From assembly GCA_012060505.1 (NCBI GenBank), contig GCA_012060505.1_3027.2: a DNA stretch of 15,812 nt. One strand, written 5' to 3'. Below the pieces are notes generated by a model. The model was given only the letters and a program-made list of their open reading frames with translations. It was not told the origin of the DNA and made no database searches. The position numbers were made by a program, and so were the translations under genes. Source of the DNA: a phage. Shown one piece after another: positions 5,931 to 12,479 of this stretch; positions within the stretch are counted from its first letter, which is position 1, and each line of letters begins with the position of its first letter.

Positions 5931-6899
5931 TTATTTCAGAAGAGTAACCTCAGCGATTTCTTCCCAACCGTTTTTGTCGGTCATAATAAAGTCAGCAAGA
6001 TAAAGAGCAGTACGCAGTGAAACATTGCGTAAACGATTAACATTGACTTTCATCCATGATAATGCTTTATAAGTTTCTTCATCAGAAAGACCGCGCTTTT
6101 GCATCATGTCAGTTGAAAGAATAACATCTTCAACCCTGACCATAATTTCTTCATTAGTGTGAACACCCAAATCCAAATAAACTGAGCGGGACACTAATGC
6201 TTGTAAATGTGGAGCAAGTTTAGTACCACGGTCTAATTCGCGGTCAATATCAACGTTTGTGATAAAAACAATCGTTCCTTTAAATTCAAACTCACGCTCA
6301 ATGCCTTTTTCTTCTAAGTAAGAAGATGCAGTGCTCCAGCAGACTTTACGGGTCTCTCCAGTGTCCAGAGCAGCTTTTAGAAGATTAAGAATGTCCATAT
6401 CAGAGAAAACATCCACATCATCAATCAAAAGGACAGAATTCTCTTCACGATTATTCCAAAGCTGTTCATAAAGACCAATACCAGAGATTTTACCATTAAT
6501 GCTTTTATACTCAATGTATCCAATATCATTTGCTTTATTTAAAGCTTTATCTAAAGAATACGTTTTACCAATACCTGCTGCTCCCGAGATAATTAATGAA
6601 CGAATGTTTCCGTTAATAATACCATTCGTCATCATTCCCATAACATTAAATCTTTTATTAATGCGGGTTTTCATATCTTCATACGATTCTTTAACTTCTT
6701 CAACTTTTACACCATCATATGAAATGTCTGATTTGTAAACCCAAACACCGCGACGTTTACCGTCAATTTCAACAAAAACTTTACCATCTCCTTGTGCATC
6801 TACCGGAGCATTATCTGGGAACCATTCGCCTAAGAGCTCAAAAGTTCCAGAGATTTCTTTACCGAAGTAGATACCCTTATTGATAGTTACAGTTTTCAT
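5931..6899 (-). CDS. AAA+/P-loop ATPase-like protein, 322 aa
   Basis: Walker A SGAAGIGKTY, Walker B-like VLLIDDVD, sensor-like IVFITN; start ATG 6897-6899 with SD GGAGAAT, just downstream of the promoter at 6934-6963. Confidence 0.8.
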   Translation of the reverse strand: MKTVTINKGIYFGKEISGTFELLGEWFPDNAPVDAQGDGKVFVEIDGKRRGVWVYKSDISYDGVKVEEVKESYEDMKTRINKRFNVMGMMTNGIINGNIRSLIISGAAGIGKTYSLDKALNKANDIGYIEYKSINGKISGIGLYEQLWNNREENSVLLIDDVDVFSDMDILNLLKAALDTGETRKVCWSTASSYLEEKGIEREFEFKGTIVFITNVDIDRELDRGTKLAPHLQALVSRSVYLDLGVHTNEEIMVRVEDVILSTDMMQKRGLSDEETYKALSWMKVNVNRLRNVSLRTALYLADFIMTDKNGWEEIAEVTLLK

Positions 6900-6933
6900 T
6901 TTATTCTCCAAATCCGTATCAGTTGATAGTTGT

Positions 6934-6963
6934 ATAGTACCATAAAGCTTTATGCTTGTAAAC
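6934..6963 (-). promoter_or_regulatory. T4-early-type sigma70 promoter
   Basis: Minus strand: GTTTAC - 18 nt - TACTAT with TGG extended -10; sits immediately downstream of the terminator at 6986-7013. Confidence 0.6.
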
Positions 6964-6985
6964 AATTTTGTGAAAAAATTTTTGA

Positions 6986-7013
6986 AATAAAAAAAGGGAG
7001 CCCGAAGGCTCCC
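6986..7013 (-). terminator. Intrinsic terminator, 7-bp GC stem with UUCG loop and U-run
   Basis: Minus strand reads GGGAGCC-ttcg-GGCTCCC followed by TTTTTTTATTT, directly after the TGA of gene 7016-8029. Confidence 0.8.
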
Positions 7014-7015
7014 TA

Positions 7016-8029
7016 TCATTTATAATAACTTCGGTGGTTTTCAAGATAGACCTTCTCAAGGAAGTCATCCCAGAAACCCATGTCTACTTTTTGCTGCATA
7101 CCGTTCTTAGAAGCTTCAATAGATGCTGCTTCTACTTGATCGACCACATCTTCCAAAAACTCTTGAACTGTTTTAAATGGATGTTTACCCAACTTCACGT
7201 CGAGAATAAATGGAGCATCTTGAAGTGGATAAACCAAGTCACCAGTTTTGTAAATTTCCAATAGTTGAAGTCCACCACGGCAAGCATGGCTCAGAGCTTT
7301 CCAGTCAATACCTTCATTGGCTTCGGCCTTACGAGCACGTTCACCGTATTCGGCATCAAGTTTATTCAAAGACTGCTTAAGCTCAATAAGAGAAAGCGTT
7401 GTCTGATATTTACGACCCAACACAGTGTAGAACGTTTGTGGACCGGTTTTCTCATGATTATGGAATACCCATTCACAAAACTCGTTTTCAGGGAGTCGGT
7501 GTTTGATATCTTCTACCTTAGTTCGGCGTAAACGATCTGGAATTCCCTCTTGGTAATCAACCCACTGGTCAGGGATTTGATTAACTACTTTCAATACATC
7601 ACGTAATGCGGCCAAACGAGAACCCTTGACACCGTATTTAGAAGCTTGCTTGCGAACATATCCTAAATAGGATTTCATGTTAGTCGTATAAAAACGAGAA
7701 CGATTGTCTTGAATAAACTTCCATACATCAGGCAAATCAGATTTAACTACCAGTTCAAGTGGAGTGTGGAGCATATCCAATGCTACGGTTTCACCATCTG
7801 CTGCTAATTTAAAGAAATATTTAAGACTGTATAGTTCATGGTCAATATCATCTTTGGTGTTTTTAGATGATGTGTTGTTAGTGTTTTTACTCATATGCTC
7901 TTTGACATTTCCGATAAGAATATCGCGAGCAGGAGGAACAAAGATTTCTTTAAAATCTACATCAGATTCTGGAGTAGAAGTTCCATAAAGATGACTACCA
8001 AAATAGCTTTTCATTACTGTTTTCATCAT
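7016..8029 (-). CDS. Pol-beta-superfamily nucleotidyltransferase-fold protein, 337 aa
   Basis: N-terminal motif GSHLYGTSTPESDVDF (G[SG]-x9-13-D-x-D) plus downstream acidic ALD; ATG 8027-8029 overlaps the upstream stop as ATGA. Confidence 0.75.
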   Translation of the reverse strand: MMKTVMKSYFGSHLYGTSTPESDVDFKEIFVPPARDILIGNVKEHMSKNTNNTSSKNTKDDIDHELYSLKYFFKLAADGETVALDMLHTPLELVVKSDLPDVWKFIQDNRSRFYTTNMKSYLGYVRKQASKYGVKGSRLAALRDVLKVVNQIPDQWVDYQEGIPDRLRRTKVEDIKHRLPENEFCEWVFHNHEKTGPQTFYTVLGRKYQTTLSLIELKQSLNKLDAEYGERARKAEANEGIDWKALSHACRGGLQLLEIYKTGDLVYPLQDAPFILDVKLGKHPFKTVQEFLEDVVDQVEAASIEASKNGMQQKVDMGFWDDFLEKVYLENHRSYYK

Positions 8030-8487
8030 TCAGCCTTATATTCAATAACAGGACATACTTTAGCTTTACGAGCTTTTAAAAATTCAACGATAATCGATTT
8101 CTTGGGTTGAATAGGAGGTAAACCTTTATACGCCCTATCAATATTTTCTACGTGTAAAGCATAGTCCTTTTTCCATTTATAATCTTTATATTTTTCACGC
8201 AGTTGTGCAGGAATAACAAATGAACCGATAATAAGTAAAACAACCAAAAGCGCAAGTATAAATGCTGATGGAAGCAAAGTCCATAAACTACCGAAAATAA
8301 GCCAACGTTGTAGGCTTTCTGCACAAATAATTGTTAGCCCTATGAGTATAGTACACCCAAAAATAGAAACGAAAAATGTAGGTATGGCAATAGACCAAAA
8401 ATATGCGCATAGTGTCTTAGGTCGTTGCCATTCATCGTTAAACAATTTGAATAATTTATAGTGCCAAGAGTTTTCATTAATAATCAT
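8026..8487 (-). CDS. Predicted multi-pass membrane protein, 153 aa
   Basis: ORF track; ATG 8485-8487 with SD AAAGGA; three long hydrophobic segments. Confidence 0.7.
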   Translation of the reverse strand: MIINENSWHYKLFKLFNDEWQRPKTLCAYFWSIAIPTFFVSIFGCTILIGLTIICAESLQRWLIFGSLWTLLPSAFILALLVVLLIIGSFVIPAQLREKYKDYKWKKDYALHVENIDRAYKGLPPIQPKKSIIVEFLKARKAKVCPVIEYKAE

Positions 8488-8489
8488 AA

Positions 8490-9011
8490 TTATCCTTTCA
8501 TTGAAGGCGTAACGGTTGTTAAATACTTAATCATAGCTTCAGCTTCTGATTTTGATAGTGAAATTTCTTCACCGTTTTGGCGAATAGAAACAAAATCTGG
8601 ATGACGATCACCACCAGCTTTTAAAACACACATATAAGTATCAGCTTCGCCTTCAATATTTGAAATGATTGAAGCAGTTCCACACGAATGTGGTTTTTGA
8701 TAAATCAATACAGCTTTTCTTCCACCATTTGACTGTTCATAGGCTTTTAATACATCAAACAAATCAGTTCTTTTATCAATAGCTAAAATGTTATTTTCAT
8801 CTTCAATGTTAAATCCTTCGGATACTTCATAAAGCGTTACCCATAAATCGCCAATATCAATAACAGCATTTACTTTTCCACGGCTTTCAAGAGTATGACA
8901 AATTTTCTTGATTTCGTCATAACTCATTTTAATAATATCATCTCCTTGACTAAGGAAGATGTCATTTTTAAATTCAACACGAATTAAACCGCTTCCACTT
9001 GAAATAAACAT
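8490..9011 (-). CDS. Hypothetical 173-aa protein, paralog of the next gene
   Basis: ORF track; ATG 9009-9011 with SD GAGGAAAT; C-terminus EAEAMIKYLTTVTPSMKG resembles the C-terminus of the 9018-9560 product. Confidence 0.7.
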   Translation of the reverse strand: MFISSGSGLIRVEFKNDIFLSQGDDIIKMSYDEIKKICHTLESRGKVNAVIDIGDLWVTLYEVSEGFNIEDENNILAIDKRTDLFDVLKAYEQSNGGRKAVLIYQKPHSCGTASIISNIEGEADTYMCVLKAGGDRHPDFVSIRQNGEEISLSKSEAEAMIKYLTTVTPSMKG

Positions 9012-9017
9012 ATTTCC

Positions 9018-9560
9018 TCACTTTGAAATCATAGTTGGAATTACAGAATCAAGATAAGTCTTTAGTGCAATAGCTTCGTCTTTGGTAAATGTGACAATAT
9101 GTGCTCGAGAATCATCAATTTGGCGAACAAGTACGACATCGCCATCTTCATAAGAAGTCTTGACATCCAAAGTCGTAGTATAATTTGCAGCTACTGGATT
9201 AATAATGCTAGCACCGCGATCTTTAGCCCATTGAAGTTTAGCCTTTTCGGGTGTTTCGACTGTTTCAGATTCTAAGAATTCTTTCACCTTGACAACGAAT
9301 GTTGCCCAATTGCTGATAGAAAGACACATAAATTCAGTTTCAATATTACCGCCGTAAAGGCCACGATAAAAACGAACTTGGAGGTCGTCTGTAATATTAG
9401 TTACACCGGTAACTCCTGAGGGAGCATAAGATAAAATCGCAGCCAGTTCCATAGGAAGAATAGTAATACTATCGTCTTCCTGCGTCAGAACGTATACATT
9501 ACCACGTTTTTCGATAACCAGGTCACCGAACAAATCAGTTGTTTCAATTACAGCTTTCAT
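9018..9560 (-). CDS. Hypothetical 180-aa protein, paralog of the previous gene
   Basis: Track ORF begins at a TTG; ATG at 9558-9560 is used instead; C-terminus DEAIALKTYLDSVIPTMISK. Confidence 0.65.
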   Translation of the reverse strand: MKAVIETTDLFGDLVIEKRGNVYVLTQEDDSITILPMELAAILSYAPSGVTGVTNITDDLQVRFYRGLYGGNIETEFMCLSISNWATFVVKVKEFLESETVETPEKAKLQWAKDRGASIINPVAANYTTTLDVKTSYEDGDVVLVRQIDDSRAHIVTFTKDEAIALKTYLDSVIPTMISK

Positions 9561-9561
9561 A

Positions 9562-9747
9562 TTATTTACCAATTAAAGTTTCAATATAAGAATCAAGATT
9601 TACTTTAGCTTCTTCCATAAGAGTTTTGTATTTAATCTTGTTGGCATGTCCGGAGAAAGCTGATTCATCAATAACTGTTGCTGTATGAACAGCTTTGCTA
9701 TATGTTTCAATTAATTCTCTTAATTTAAAAGCCTGCTCACTTGTCAT
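9562..9747 (-). CDS. Small helical protein, 61 aa, member of a ~60-aa paralog family
   Basis: ATG 9745-9747 follows SD AGGAG by 6 nt; N-terminus MTSEQAFKLRELIETYSKAV. Confidence 0.6.
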   Translation of the reverse strand: MTSEQAFKLRELIETYSKAVHTATVIDESAFSGHANKIKYKTLMEEAKVNLDSYIETLIGK

Positions 9748-9851
9748 CACATACTCCTCTGAATCATATCAATAATGTTATTCACCAGATTATAAGTAAA
9801 CATTGGGTAATTATATTGAATCATCACATACACAACAAACAAAACTTTCAT
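9747..9851 (-). CDS. Possible 34-aa hydrophobic micro-protein (below ORF-track threshold)
   Basis: Manual translation MKVLFVVYVMIQYNYPMFTYNLVNNIIDMIQRSM; SD AAGGAG upstream; lies just downstream of promoter 9880-9909; stop overlaps the next start. Confidence 0.35.
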   Translation of the reverse strand: MKVLFVVYVMIQYNYPMFTYNLVNNIIDMIQRSM

Positions 9852-9879
9852 TCTCTTCTCCTTGACAGTTGACAAGATT

Positions 9880-9909
9880 ACTATACCATAACCTTGCCAA
9901 CTTGTAAAC
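9880..9909 (-). promoter_or_regulatory. T4-early-type sigma70 promoter
   Basis: Minus strand: GTTTAC - 18 nt - TATAGT with TGG extended -10. Confidence 0.6.
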
Positions 9910-9911
9910 CA

Positions 9912-10085
9912 TTAAATGGTGTTTTCAATAAAATTCTGAAGCTTTGTGTGAGCATCAACCATGATTTTCATTTCTTCTTTGGCGAAAGCTGTACCTCTTT
10001 CCCGAGAAGAACATTCATAGTCAGAAACTGCATTAGCATATTCTTCAATTAGTTTCATTAAAAACATCTGCTTTTCAGTTTTCAT
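9912..10085 (-). CDS. Small helical protein, 57 aa, paralog-family member (below ORF-track threshold)
   Basis: Manual translation MKTEKQMFLMKLIEEYANAVSDYECSSRERGTAFAKEEMKIMVDAHTKLQNFIENTI; SD AGGTGG; 11-nt overlap with upstream gene. Confidence 0.5.
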   Translation of the reverse strand: MKTEKQMFLMKLIEEYANAVSDYECSSRERGTAFAKEEMKIMVDAHTKLQNFIENTI

Positions 10086-10269
10086 TATTCCACCTAATCA
10101 TTTCAAGATATTGAACTAACTTAGCTTTAGATTTATCCAAATCCTTTTTAGCTGTTTCTATACCGTCGTATGAATATCCTTCACAATGCTCAACTGCTAA
10201 TTGGTATGAATCTATTTCAATATCACGTGCTAATTTAATGATTTTTTCAAACTGTTCACGTGTTAGCAT
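10075..10269 (-). CDS. Small helical protein, 64 aa, paralog-family member
   Basis: ORF track; ATG 10267-10269; N-terminus MLTREQFEKIIKLARDIE. Confidence 0.6.
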   Translation of the reverse strand: MLTREQFEKIIKLARDIEIDSYQLAVEHCEGYSYDGIETAKKDLDKSKAKLVQYLEMIRWNNEN

Positions 10270-10271
10270 AC

Positions 10272-10475
10272 TTAAACTCTCGTATTATGATCAATAATTT
10301 CATCAAGAAACATATCTAACGCTTCTAAAGCATTATCCACTTTAGTTTCAAAGTCTTTAATGCCTTTATTCGAAATACCCGATGAATACCAAGCAAAGTC
10401 AATCAGCTCTTCATCTGCTTTGCGAATTGAAGCCACTAATTCCTTGATTTTATCCGCTTGCTCTACACTAATCAT
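10272..10475 (-). CDS. Small helical protein, 67 aa, paralog-family member
   Basis: ORF track frame; start taken at ATG 10473-10475 (TAATG overlap with upstream stop); N-terminus [18 protein letters not shown]. Confidence 0.6.
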   Translation of the reverse strand: MISVEQADKIKELVASIRKADEELIDFAWYSSGISNKGIKDFETKVDNALEALDMFLDEIIDHNTRV

Positions 10476-10663
10476 TATTCCACCACATATGAAAGAGAGA
10501 ATATTGCACACGCCATATGAGTTGCAACTTCATCACACATATTATAACGTTTCTTAAGAAGTTCTACAAGTTCTTCACTGGTAACTTCATCCATGTCGAC
10601 GAAAAAATCACCATTAATGATGACGTAGATATTTCCTTCTTGATTGAGTGCTTCAATTTTCAT
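10475..10663 (-). CDS. Hypothetical 62-aa protein
   Basis: ORF track frame; start moved to ATG 10661-10663 (SD AGAGGAGA) because the longer track ORF overlaps promoter 10692-10721. Confidence 0.6.
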
Positions 10664-12293: not shown

Positions 12294-12479
12294 TTAAAGC
12301 GTATTCACATAAGCTATTAATTCATTTTCTTTCTTATCAAACCGATCAGCAAATTCTTCCTGCTGTTCGGGAGATAGCGGGCCGTATTCATCATAAAAGG
12401 TGTTTGCTTCTGTATGCTCATCTAGAAGTTCATGGATAAGCTCAAACAATTTATCTTTTTGTTCTTTACTCAGACTCAT
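12294..12479 (-). CDS. Small acidic helical protein, 61 aa, paralog-family member
   Basis: ORF track; ATG 12477-12479; N-terminus MSLSKEQKDKLFELIHELL. Confidence 0.6.
   Translation of the reverse strand: MSLSKEQKDKLFELIHELLDEHTEANTFYDEYGPLSPEQQEEFADRFDKKENELIAYVNTL

Follow-up and report, generated by a model that had tools for sequence, protein, structure and literature searches.

A tandem pair of full-length MobD.1-family genes in a T4-like phage: paralogy, history of the locus and a predicted PC4/PUR-like fold

What relationship lies behind two adjacent phage genes whose products share a tail and otherwise look unlike each other? The question is raised by a 15,812-nucleotide (nt) stretch of phage DNA (GenBank assembly GCA_012060505.1, contig GCA_012060505.1_3027.2), the whole of which is called the window here. 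In it the open reading frames (ORFs) at 8490-9011 (gene B, 173 amino acids (aa)) and 9018-9560 (gene A, 180 aa) stand side by side. A sequence-only reading, made without database searches, had noted their similar ends and proposed a local duplication, after which the rest of each protein diverged. Both ORFs exist, and their C-termini are exactly as that reading quoted them (...SKSEAEAMIKYLTTVTPSMKG for gene B and ...TKDEAIALKTYLDSVIPTMISK for gene A). The window DNA is 97-98% identical to Tequatrovirus genomes, e.g. Kha5h, RB27 and GiZh, an identity that marks it as DNA of this T4-like genus. Every gene of the region discussed lies on the minus strand, with the transcription order mobD.2 (9875..9747), a 62-aa DUF7438 gene, gene A, gene B, a membrane protein gene and nrdC.11. 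The pair had been described as lying downstream of the membrane protein gene; the strand reverses this, placing the membrane protein gene downstream of the pair.

The homology between A and B proved to extend from end to end. BLASTP aligned 173 residues over the full length at 29% identity (E 5e-7). Smith-Waterman local scores were then compared with those of 2000 composition-preserving shuffles: at full length the score was never reached (z = 11.2; 0/2000), and it was reached by only a few shuffles when the last 25 aa (z = 5.6; 4/2000) or the last 40 aa (z = 5.0; 1/2000) were removed, or when the N-terminal halves were compared alone (z = 4.9; 3/2000). A similarity limited to the last ~20 residues, or insignificant against shuffles, is thereby contradicted. 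Both proteins also match the same two Pfam domains well above the gathering scores, namely PF24449 T4_y05I_N (gathering score 24.9 bits; gene B 116.2 bits, E 1e-33; gene A 110.9 bits, E 5e-32) and PF24448 T4_y05I_C (27 bits; gene B 82.2 bits, E 3e-23; gene A 63.5 bits, E 2e-17), and both match PHROG 1502 over their whole length (gene A E 4e-67, gene B E 1.5e-66). These matches argue, to a degree that approaches certainty, that A and B are full-length paralogs of the MobD.1/T4_y05I family. The paralogy suggested by the sequence-only reading is thus borne out; its picture of diverged bodies holds insofar as the proteins are deeply diverged, but not to the extent that homology is lost outside the tail. 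A third candidate paralog, T4 nrdC.8, which has a similar size (175 aa) and lies in the same region, was rejected; its window counterpart has no Pfam match.

We weighed two other accounts of the pair. One is a chance or compositional resemblance between unrelated small AT-rich phage genes with similar amphipathic terminal helices. An identity of merely 29% and the biased composition of an AT-rich genome speak for it, but it is already refuted by the alignment, shuffle, Pfam and PHROG results, and we assign it practically no probability. The other is a recent local tandem duplication in this phage lineage, in which the bodies diverged freely while a constrained tail of ~20 residues was kept. 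The genes are indeed adjacent, co-oriented and of similar length, the tail is their best-conserved stretch (local score 45, z 8.3), and unequal recombination between copies does occur, as a chimera described below attests. However, the homology spans the full length, and the tail motif, (T/S)K.EA.A(L/M)..YL..V.P(T/S)M, is present in 24/24 aligned family members and common to the whole family across genera; it is a family-wide signature rather than the part that this one pair happened to keep. We further compared local BLOSUM62 scores on fixed segments, taking the last 78 residues as the C-domain. The C-domain of B scores 103-112 against stand-alone C-domain proteins of Moon-like and STML-198-like phages and 54 against that of A, a roughly twofold difference, and its N-domain is nearer to the single-copy Dhakavirus ortholog (88) than to A (48). 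Gene A scores 128 (N-domain) and 81 (C-domain) against the same ortholog. By these score comparisons, A and B are not each other's closest relatives, as in-paralogs would be. Finally, one B allele is paired with at least two A alleles, the window type and the T4 type, which are 49% identical, a combination that implies modular exchange rather than divergence in situ. A recent local duplication is consequently improbable in our judgement. The domain scores, the shared B allele and a recurrent breakpoint (below) together point to old divergence combined with modular recombination, so that the A/B split appears to be old, or one copy imported, rather than recent and local; the dating is qualitative.

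The relation to T4 helps to identify the two genes. T4 MobD.1 (Y05I_BPT4; PF24449 and PF24448; PHROG 1502) lies, as gene A does, downstream of mobD.2 and upstream of nrdC.11, and gene A is its positional ortholog; the two proteins are 49% identical and share their last 19 residues exactly. The two-domain architecture of T4 MobD.1 recurs in gene B, which matches the same profiles. Where T4 differs is in having a single copy, followed by mobD in place of gene B and the membrane gene: its order here is mobD.1 (181 aa), the HNH homing endonuclease gene mobD, and nrdC.11. Sequence and position thus identify gene A as the ortholog of MobD.1 and gene B as a deeply diverged second lineage. When the window was compared with T4 by blastn, the flanks were 91-96% identical and homology resumed at 8030, whereas window 8031-8992 (the membrane gene and nearly all of B) had no match in T4 DNA and window 9153-9735 (the first two-thirds of A and the DUF7438 gene) was unalignable. 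Between these segments lies an island of conserved DNA around the A-B junction, of which 25 nt, including the first 6 codons of B, persist in T4 beside mobD. Directly behind the stop codon of mobD.1, T4 retains a Shine-Dalgarno sequence followed by the six codons that open gene B (ATGTTTATTTCAAGTGGAA, MFISSG); beyond them the sequence diverges into the mobD cassette. In T4 (L002 15210-15283, minus strand, equivalent to window 8993-9017) this remnant of B runs into a 23-codon ORF (MFISSGTDMCYKCKAKLNETKNQ*) whose TGA overlaps the annotated mobD ATG. We read this short ORF as the fossil of the gene that the mobD cassette replaced. A CYKC motif within it hints that the annotated start may miss the true N-terminus of MobD, or a frameshifted part of it, further upstream. 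The alignments place the mobD homing-endonuclease cassette of T4 where gene B and the membrane gene stand in the window, and T4 lacks gene B because this cassette replaced both. According to a 2010 review, a MotA-type middle promoter located in the conserved 3' end of gene A drives mobD in T4; by eye, no convincing match to such a promoter was seen in that part of the window.

The names at this locus have themselves caused confusion. Records often describe MobD.1 and MobD.4 as 'molybdopterin-guanine dinucleotide biosynthesis protein MobD' (e.g. NC_054930.1, NC_012635.1, NC_027353.1; T4 mobD.4), a name-collision error, since mobD stands for mobile endonuclease D. Similarly, nrdC.11 is frequently labelled 'thioredoxin' despite its match to the RlaP nucleotidyltransferases.

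Recombination has left further marks on the pair. A breakpoint at 9152/9153 (codon ~136 of A) recurs in three comparisons, with T4, L006 and L008. Below it the window DNA is 89-94% identical to all three, and 9153-9557 is unalignable with the same three but 81% identical to Mosigvirus LF82-8 DNA. Because identity switches at this point, gene A is a mosaic, its 5' part being Mosigvirus-like and its 3' part shared with the other phages; over its whole length it is 77% identical to the LF82-8 homolog. A protein from metagenomic contigs (P0011; L023-L025, at L023 3001-3540) is a single-copy A/B chimera with the membrane gene directly after it. Its N-terminal ~125 residues are those of a T4-type MobD.1 and its final ~52 residues those of gene B; the two parts meet at homologous C-domain positions (window ~8648), and the gene has the look of an unequal crossing-over within the tandem pair. 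Two other metagenomic 'homologs', P0013 and P0038, resemble gene B only in its final ~20-25 residues, which are attached to unrelated domains; these were set aside as probable assembly chimeras.

A survey of copy number in related phages, which the sequence-only reading had proposed, supports a tandem pair as the rule in one genus and gives a different picture in the others. Homologs of MobD.1 occur in 733 phage records, and gene B is present at ≥90% identity in about 430, while MobD at ≥95% identity is found in 47 records, for the most part from T4 and its close relatives. In Tequatrovirus the tandem pair is the usual arrangement, and the reference phage T4 is the exception. In the RB27 annotation the A-B pair lies between nrdC.11 and mobD.2, and across the RB27, T4, JS98, LF82-8 and IMG/VR loci the position between the mobD.2/DUF7438 genes and nrdC.11 is the same, with nrdC.11 bounding the variable segment on its right-hand side. 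In LF82-8 (Mosigvirus) and JS98 (Dhakavirus), one full-length copy precedes the membrane gene. At this position, Karamvirus, Moon-like and STML-198-like phages carry only a stand-alone C-domain gene of 68-81 aa; across phage genera such proteins measure 68-87 aa and carry the family tail motif. (Tequatrovirus, Mosigvirus, Dhakavirus and Karamvirus are assigned by record taxonomy; Citrobacter phage Moon we take to be a Moonvirus and Salmonella phage STML-198 a Gelderlandvirus.) Two Citrobacter phage Moon-like records (L014 3965-4421, L015 3866-4322) have two adjoining, overlapping C-domain genes (78 and 77 aa) upstream of the membrane gene, an independent tandem paralogy in the MobD.1 family that involves the half-domain only. 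The family is small, with 27 representatives among 1.84 billion clustered proteins, a figure that includes several fragments, chimeras and one 4665-aa repeat protein. The last of these (P0027) matches family profile positions 76-147 nine times (E 6e-6) and may be an unrelated beta-rich repeat protein. All full-length and C-domain-only members that were traced belong to T4-like phages, and those viral-structure matches that bear the name of a Pfam domain are from phages of Escherichia, Yersinia, Serratia and Erwinia.

To what fold might these proteins belong? The sequence-only reading had recommended structure prediction for both, and AlphaFold2 monomer models, built from a 23-sequence family alignment, gave mean predicted local distance difference test (pLDDT) values of 85.8 for gene A and 85.1 for gene B. 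Each model contains three sheet-plus-helix units, the first with 3-4 strands, the second with 4 and the third with 5; a helix follows the strands in every unit, and that of the third, at the C-terminus, bears the conserved tail. The repeat architecture does not depend on the models alone, because the profiles of unit 1 and unit 3 match each other in hhalign (probability 90%, E 1.6e-6). We also observed that the C-domain hidden Markov model envelope took in nearly full-length sequences, probably since repeat 1 resembles repeat 3. Fold relatives of the models include the Whirly-fold proteins MRP1/MRP2, PBF-2 p24 and StWhy2, the PC4 family with YdbC and the phage T5 PC4-like protein, and Pur-alpha (repeat III and the Borrelia protein); protein-binding relatives, namely an SsgA-like protein, the KhtT N-domain and PsiB, also score well. 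In sequence searches, the family profile against all PDB chains returned only noise (an aminopeptidase, E 0.03), and A and B had no match to PUR, PC4 or Whirly profiles, the PUR repeat profile (Pfam PurA) included. The resemblance to these three families is hence confined to the predicted fold and the order of repeats. Neither A, B nor the membrane protein matched NCBIfam, or the PADLOC anti-phage defence models at E ≤ 0.01, and a Foldseek search of viral predicted structures (BFVD) returned only members of the MobD.1 family and nothing on function. Based on the models, a three-unit fold in the style of PC4, Whirly and Pur-alpha is probable for both proteins.

A PC4-like domain is built either from a single chain (type I) or from two chains (type II), its helices being swapped, and a lone PC4-like repeat is unlikely to fold by itself (PMC7549692, Janowski & Niessing 2020). 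Pur-alpha is the only protein reported to have both types; its repeat III makes a dimer, possibly also heterodimers with Pur-beta (PMC7549692). By analogy, we propose that units 1 and 2 of A and B would form a self-contained type I domain, as the models predict for the N-domain of A, and that unit 3, the C-domain, would be a type II half-domain obliged to pair with another unit 3, as in Pur-alpha repeat III or homodimeric PC4. A and B would then act as dimers (A2, B2 or A:B), with the conserved tail as the helix that packs onto the partner's sheet. Pairing of this kind could explain why conservation in the family is highest at the tail helix, and why some genes, at times two side by side, encode the C-domain alone. 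It could also explain the lower confidence of the C-domain in the monomer models (pLDDT 65-89, against 87-96 for the N-domain, though the alignment is deeper over the C-domain), if a partner is needed. We favour dimerisation through the C-domain with some reservation, and place the statement as a whole, from paralogy up to and including dimerisation, at about even chances.

The nature of the ligand is a more delicate matter. Full-length members of the family are acidic (isoelectric point 4.2-5.8, net charge -3 to -22), as are nearly all the stand-alone C-domain proteins, with two exceptions. Among the positions unchanged between A, B and T4 MobD.1 are Q, DD, G, N-I-E and E, of which Q alone is invariant across five members, and the conserved residues of the N-domain and its sheet are acidic or polar. 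This composition argues against binding of single-stranded DNA (ssDNA) or RNA on the sheet face by basic and aromatic residues, and the acidity of the family would point to a scaffold that binds proteins rather than to a classical binder of single-stranded nucleic acid. The competing explanation is that A and B are classical ssDNA/RNA-binding factors like Pur-alpha, PC4 and Whirly, whose N-domain sheets grip single strands while the C-domain only dimerises; the paralogs would then differ in the sequence or strand that they recognise, or join into a heterodimer, and would serve early phage transcription, replication or the handling of RNA, the last perhaps in relation to the RlaP-type nucleotidyltransferase NrdC.11 and the AAA protein NrdC.10. 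Such a role would suit the 'putative transcription factor' label that Pfam gives to the family, and also its fold relatives, most of which bind single-stranded nucleic acid; no paper backing that label for T4_y05I was found in the literature. The acidity, the acidic or polar character of the conserved N-domain positions and the lack of any PUR, PC4 or Whirly profile match speak against it, and we regard it as rather unlikely, although far from negligible. A protein ligand, to which we give an even chance, seems somewhat more likely than a nucleic acid.

If the partner is a protein, a candidate lies immediately downstream. In loci of about six Tevenvirinae genera (Tequatrovirus, Mosigvirus, Dhakavirus and Karamvirus, plus the Moon-like and STML-198-like phages) a MobD.1-family member is directly upstream of a membrane gene of ~150-160 aa, with starts and stops that overlap or are 2-10 nt apart, while the identity of the membrane protein drops to about 30% across the linked loci. 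In the window the membrane gene starts 2 nt past the gene B stop codon, and its own stop overlaps the nrdC.11 start. In T4 and T2 the membrane gene is lost or decayed together with gene B. By eye the membrane protein has 2-3 hydrophobic segments and a basic C-terminal tail, and residues invariant in its alignment are M1, I3, W8, H9, L26, C27 and Y29-F30-W31 near the N-terminus and A139, K141, K143 and C145-P146 near the C-terminus; the two cysteines among them, together with the histidine, are possible ligands of a metal or parts of a redox site. Its family, for which there is no Pfam entry, also has members outside Tevenvirinae, in Aeromonas AS-zj and the Serratia jumbo phage BF. We suggest that the most likely partner of the membrane-proximal copy would be this tightly packed, possibly translationally coupled, membrane protein with its basic cytoplasmic tail, and that the whole unit may form a non-essential early accessory module; the link between the two families is tentative. 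Our overall reading, held with moderate confidence, is of a dimeric acidic scaffold with a PC4/PUR-like fold in such a module. We speculate further, as a long shot, that the MobD.1 family is a viral counterpart of Pur-alpha in which A and B, where a phage has both, form an obligate heterodimer through their C-terminal units, acidic and not binding nucleic acid, docked on the basic cytoplasmic tail of the co-translated membrane protein; this would be an unrecognised early module, e.g. for superinfection exclusion or anti-defence, half-erased in T4 by mobD.

Several considerations weigh against the scaffold reading. The fold is taken from AlphaFold models. PC4, Whirly and PUR proteins are overwhelmingly nucleic-acid binders, and acidity alone does not exclude that activity. 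T4-like gene order is conserved generally, which weakens the argument from synteny. T4 keeps an intact MobD.1 without the membrane gene, and in Aeromonas AS-zj and Serratia BF no family member could be detected upstream of the membrane homolog; since each occurs alone, the family member and the membrane protein are not obligate partners. No Rosetta-stone fusion with the membrane protein was present among 23 homologs, all ≤161 aa. A literature search on mobD.1, y05I and the Pfam accessions returned no functional study, and yielded one review, in which mobD.1 serves only to mark on the map where mobD is inserted; the MobD.1 family is catalogued but functionally uncharacterised.

Two lines of evidence bear on how much these genes matter to the phage. 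In comparisons with measurable divergence, the ratio of nonsynonymous to synonymous substitution rates (dN/dS) was 0.08-0.32 for A, B and the membrane gene (0.15-0.28 for A and 0.09-0.22 for B), and all three are under purifying selection. In two separately deposited phage T2 records (L003 1940-3019, L005 1471-2550), identical frameshifts break both A and B, and the membrane gene is in two pieces or truncated (135 aa), with nrdC.11 intact; a shared sequencing artefact is possible. Viable genome-reduced T4 mutants have lost nrdC.11-mobD.3 (PMC9825161). Because of the T2 frameshifts and these deletion mutants, we consider the genes dispensable in the laboratory.

Table 1. Coordinates of the pair, its domains and neighbouring features in the window
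Feature	Coordinates	Strand	Basis
Gene A, 180 aa, T4 MobD.1 ortholog (UniProt-style y05I)	9018..9560	-	Translation, Pfam T4_y05I_N + T4_y05I_C
Gene B, 173 aa, second divergent full-length MobD.1-family member	8490..9011	-	Translation, Pfam, PHROG 1502
Gene A N-domain, residues 1-103, two predicted beta-sheet-plus-helix units	9252..9560	-	
Gene A C-domain, residues 104-180, predicted third unit, tail TKDEAIALKTYLDSVIPTMISK	9021..9251	-	Pfam T4_y05I_C residues 108-177; helix 160-173
Gene B N-domain, residues 1-97, two predicted beta-sheet-plus-helix units	8721..9011	-	
Gene B C-domain, residues 98-173, predicted third unit, tail SKSEAEAMIKYLTTVTPSMKG	8493..8720	-	Pfam T4_y05I_C residues 102-171; helix 154-167
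A-B junction: TGA stop of A overlaps Shine-Dalgarno-like GAGGAAA, 5 nt before B ATG	9012..9020	-	Read from sequence
DNA conservation island: 3' 135 nt of A, junction, first 19 nt of B	8993..9152	.	blastn vs T4, 89% over 160 nt
Membrane protein, 153 aa, PHROG 944 E 1e-49	8026..8487	-	Translation, profile match
nrdC.11 nucleotidyltransferase, RlaP family	7016..8029	-	Pfam RlaP E 8e-12, PHROG 388
62-aa DUF7438 gene upstream of A	9562..9750	-	Pfam PF24219 E 1e-15
DUF7438 genes	9562-9750, 9912-10085, 10075-10269, 10272-10511, 12294-12479	-	Pfam
Candidate sigma-70/T4-early-like promoter GTTTACA-17-TGnTATAGT	9880..9908	-	Consensus scan, 10/12 matches + extended TG

The immediate surroundings of the pair are equally compact. 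The length of gene A is counted from its ATG; an alternative TTG start is present at 9572. The stop codon of the DUF7438 gene lies 1 nt before this ATG, a spacing that puts the two genes in one transcription unit. The candidate early-like promoter (Table 1) lies upstream of mobD.2, the DUF7438 gene, A, B, the membrane gene and nrdC.11; it is a consensus match only, and overall counts in the promoter and terminator scan were at the level of shuffled sequence. Five small minus-strand genes of the window (57-79 aa) match DUF7438 (E 1e-15 to 3e-19), and these genes (mobD.2a, mobD.3, tk.1 and others) make up a larger dispersed or tandem paralog family just upstream of the A-B pair. One member is labelled 'helicase loader' (PHROG 4859, RefSeq), a label for which we saw no evidence. 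On the other side, the nrdC.10 homolog (window 5931-7019, minus strand) is a 362-aa ORF abutting nrdC.11, of which PHROG 1250 matches residues 41-362 only; in RB27 and T4, NrdC.10 is annotated at 322-325 aa with an intergenic gap of ~100 nt. The window protein may have an N-terminal extension, or its true start may be internal.

What is new here is the recognition of gene B as a second lineage, apparently old, that is missing from T4, together with the recombination and cassette history of the locus, the predicted Pur-alpha-like layout of three units, and a reading of the conserved tail as part of a putative half-domain. The result is sound but ordinary; it does not overturn current understanding, and its value lies mostly in annotation. 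Gene B, a 'hypothetical protein' in ~430 T4-like phages, and MobD.1, mislabelled in many records, can both be described as paralogous members of the MobD.1 family with a predicted PC4/PUR-like fold. Since the mobD cassette removed gene B and the membrane gene, T4 genetics cannot reveal the role of the complete module, for which phages of the RB27, wV7 or Kha5h type are suitable models. If the three units and dimerisation through the C-domain are true, the family would be a compact phage example of the Pur-alpha design, and A alone, A with B, the A/B chimera, the C-domain alone and two C-domains would form a natural series for the divergence of paralogs with a dimerising half-domain.

Known systems offer three comparisons for the predicted architecture. 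The SsgA/SsgB-like cell-division proteins (3cm1) and the KhtT N-domain (7agv/7agw) are fold relatives that work with membrane proteins and not with nucleic acid; the likeness is an analogy at the level of fold only, with no sequence similarity. The PC4-like type II homodimers, among them human PC4, MoSub1, Burkholderia BPSL1147, Lactococcus YdbC, the phage T5 PC4-like protein and Borrelia Pur-alpha, bind ssDNA and are basic; nearly all the phage C-domain proteins, by contrast, are acidic, and they show no sequence similarity to this group. Lastly, the eukaryotic protein Pur-alpha (PURA; PDB 3k44 for repeats I-II, 5fgo and 8chw for repeat III) is built of three repeats, and three units are likewise predicted for A and B.

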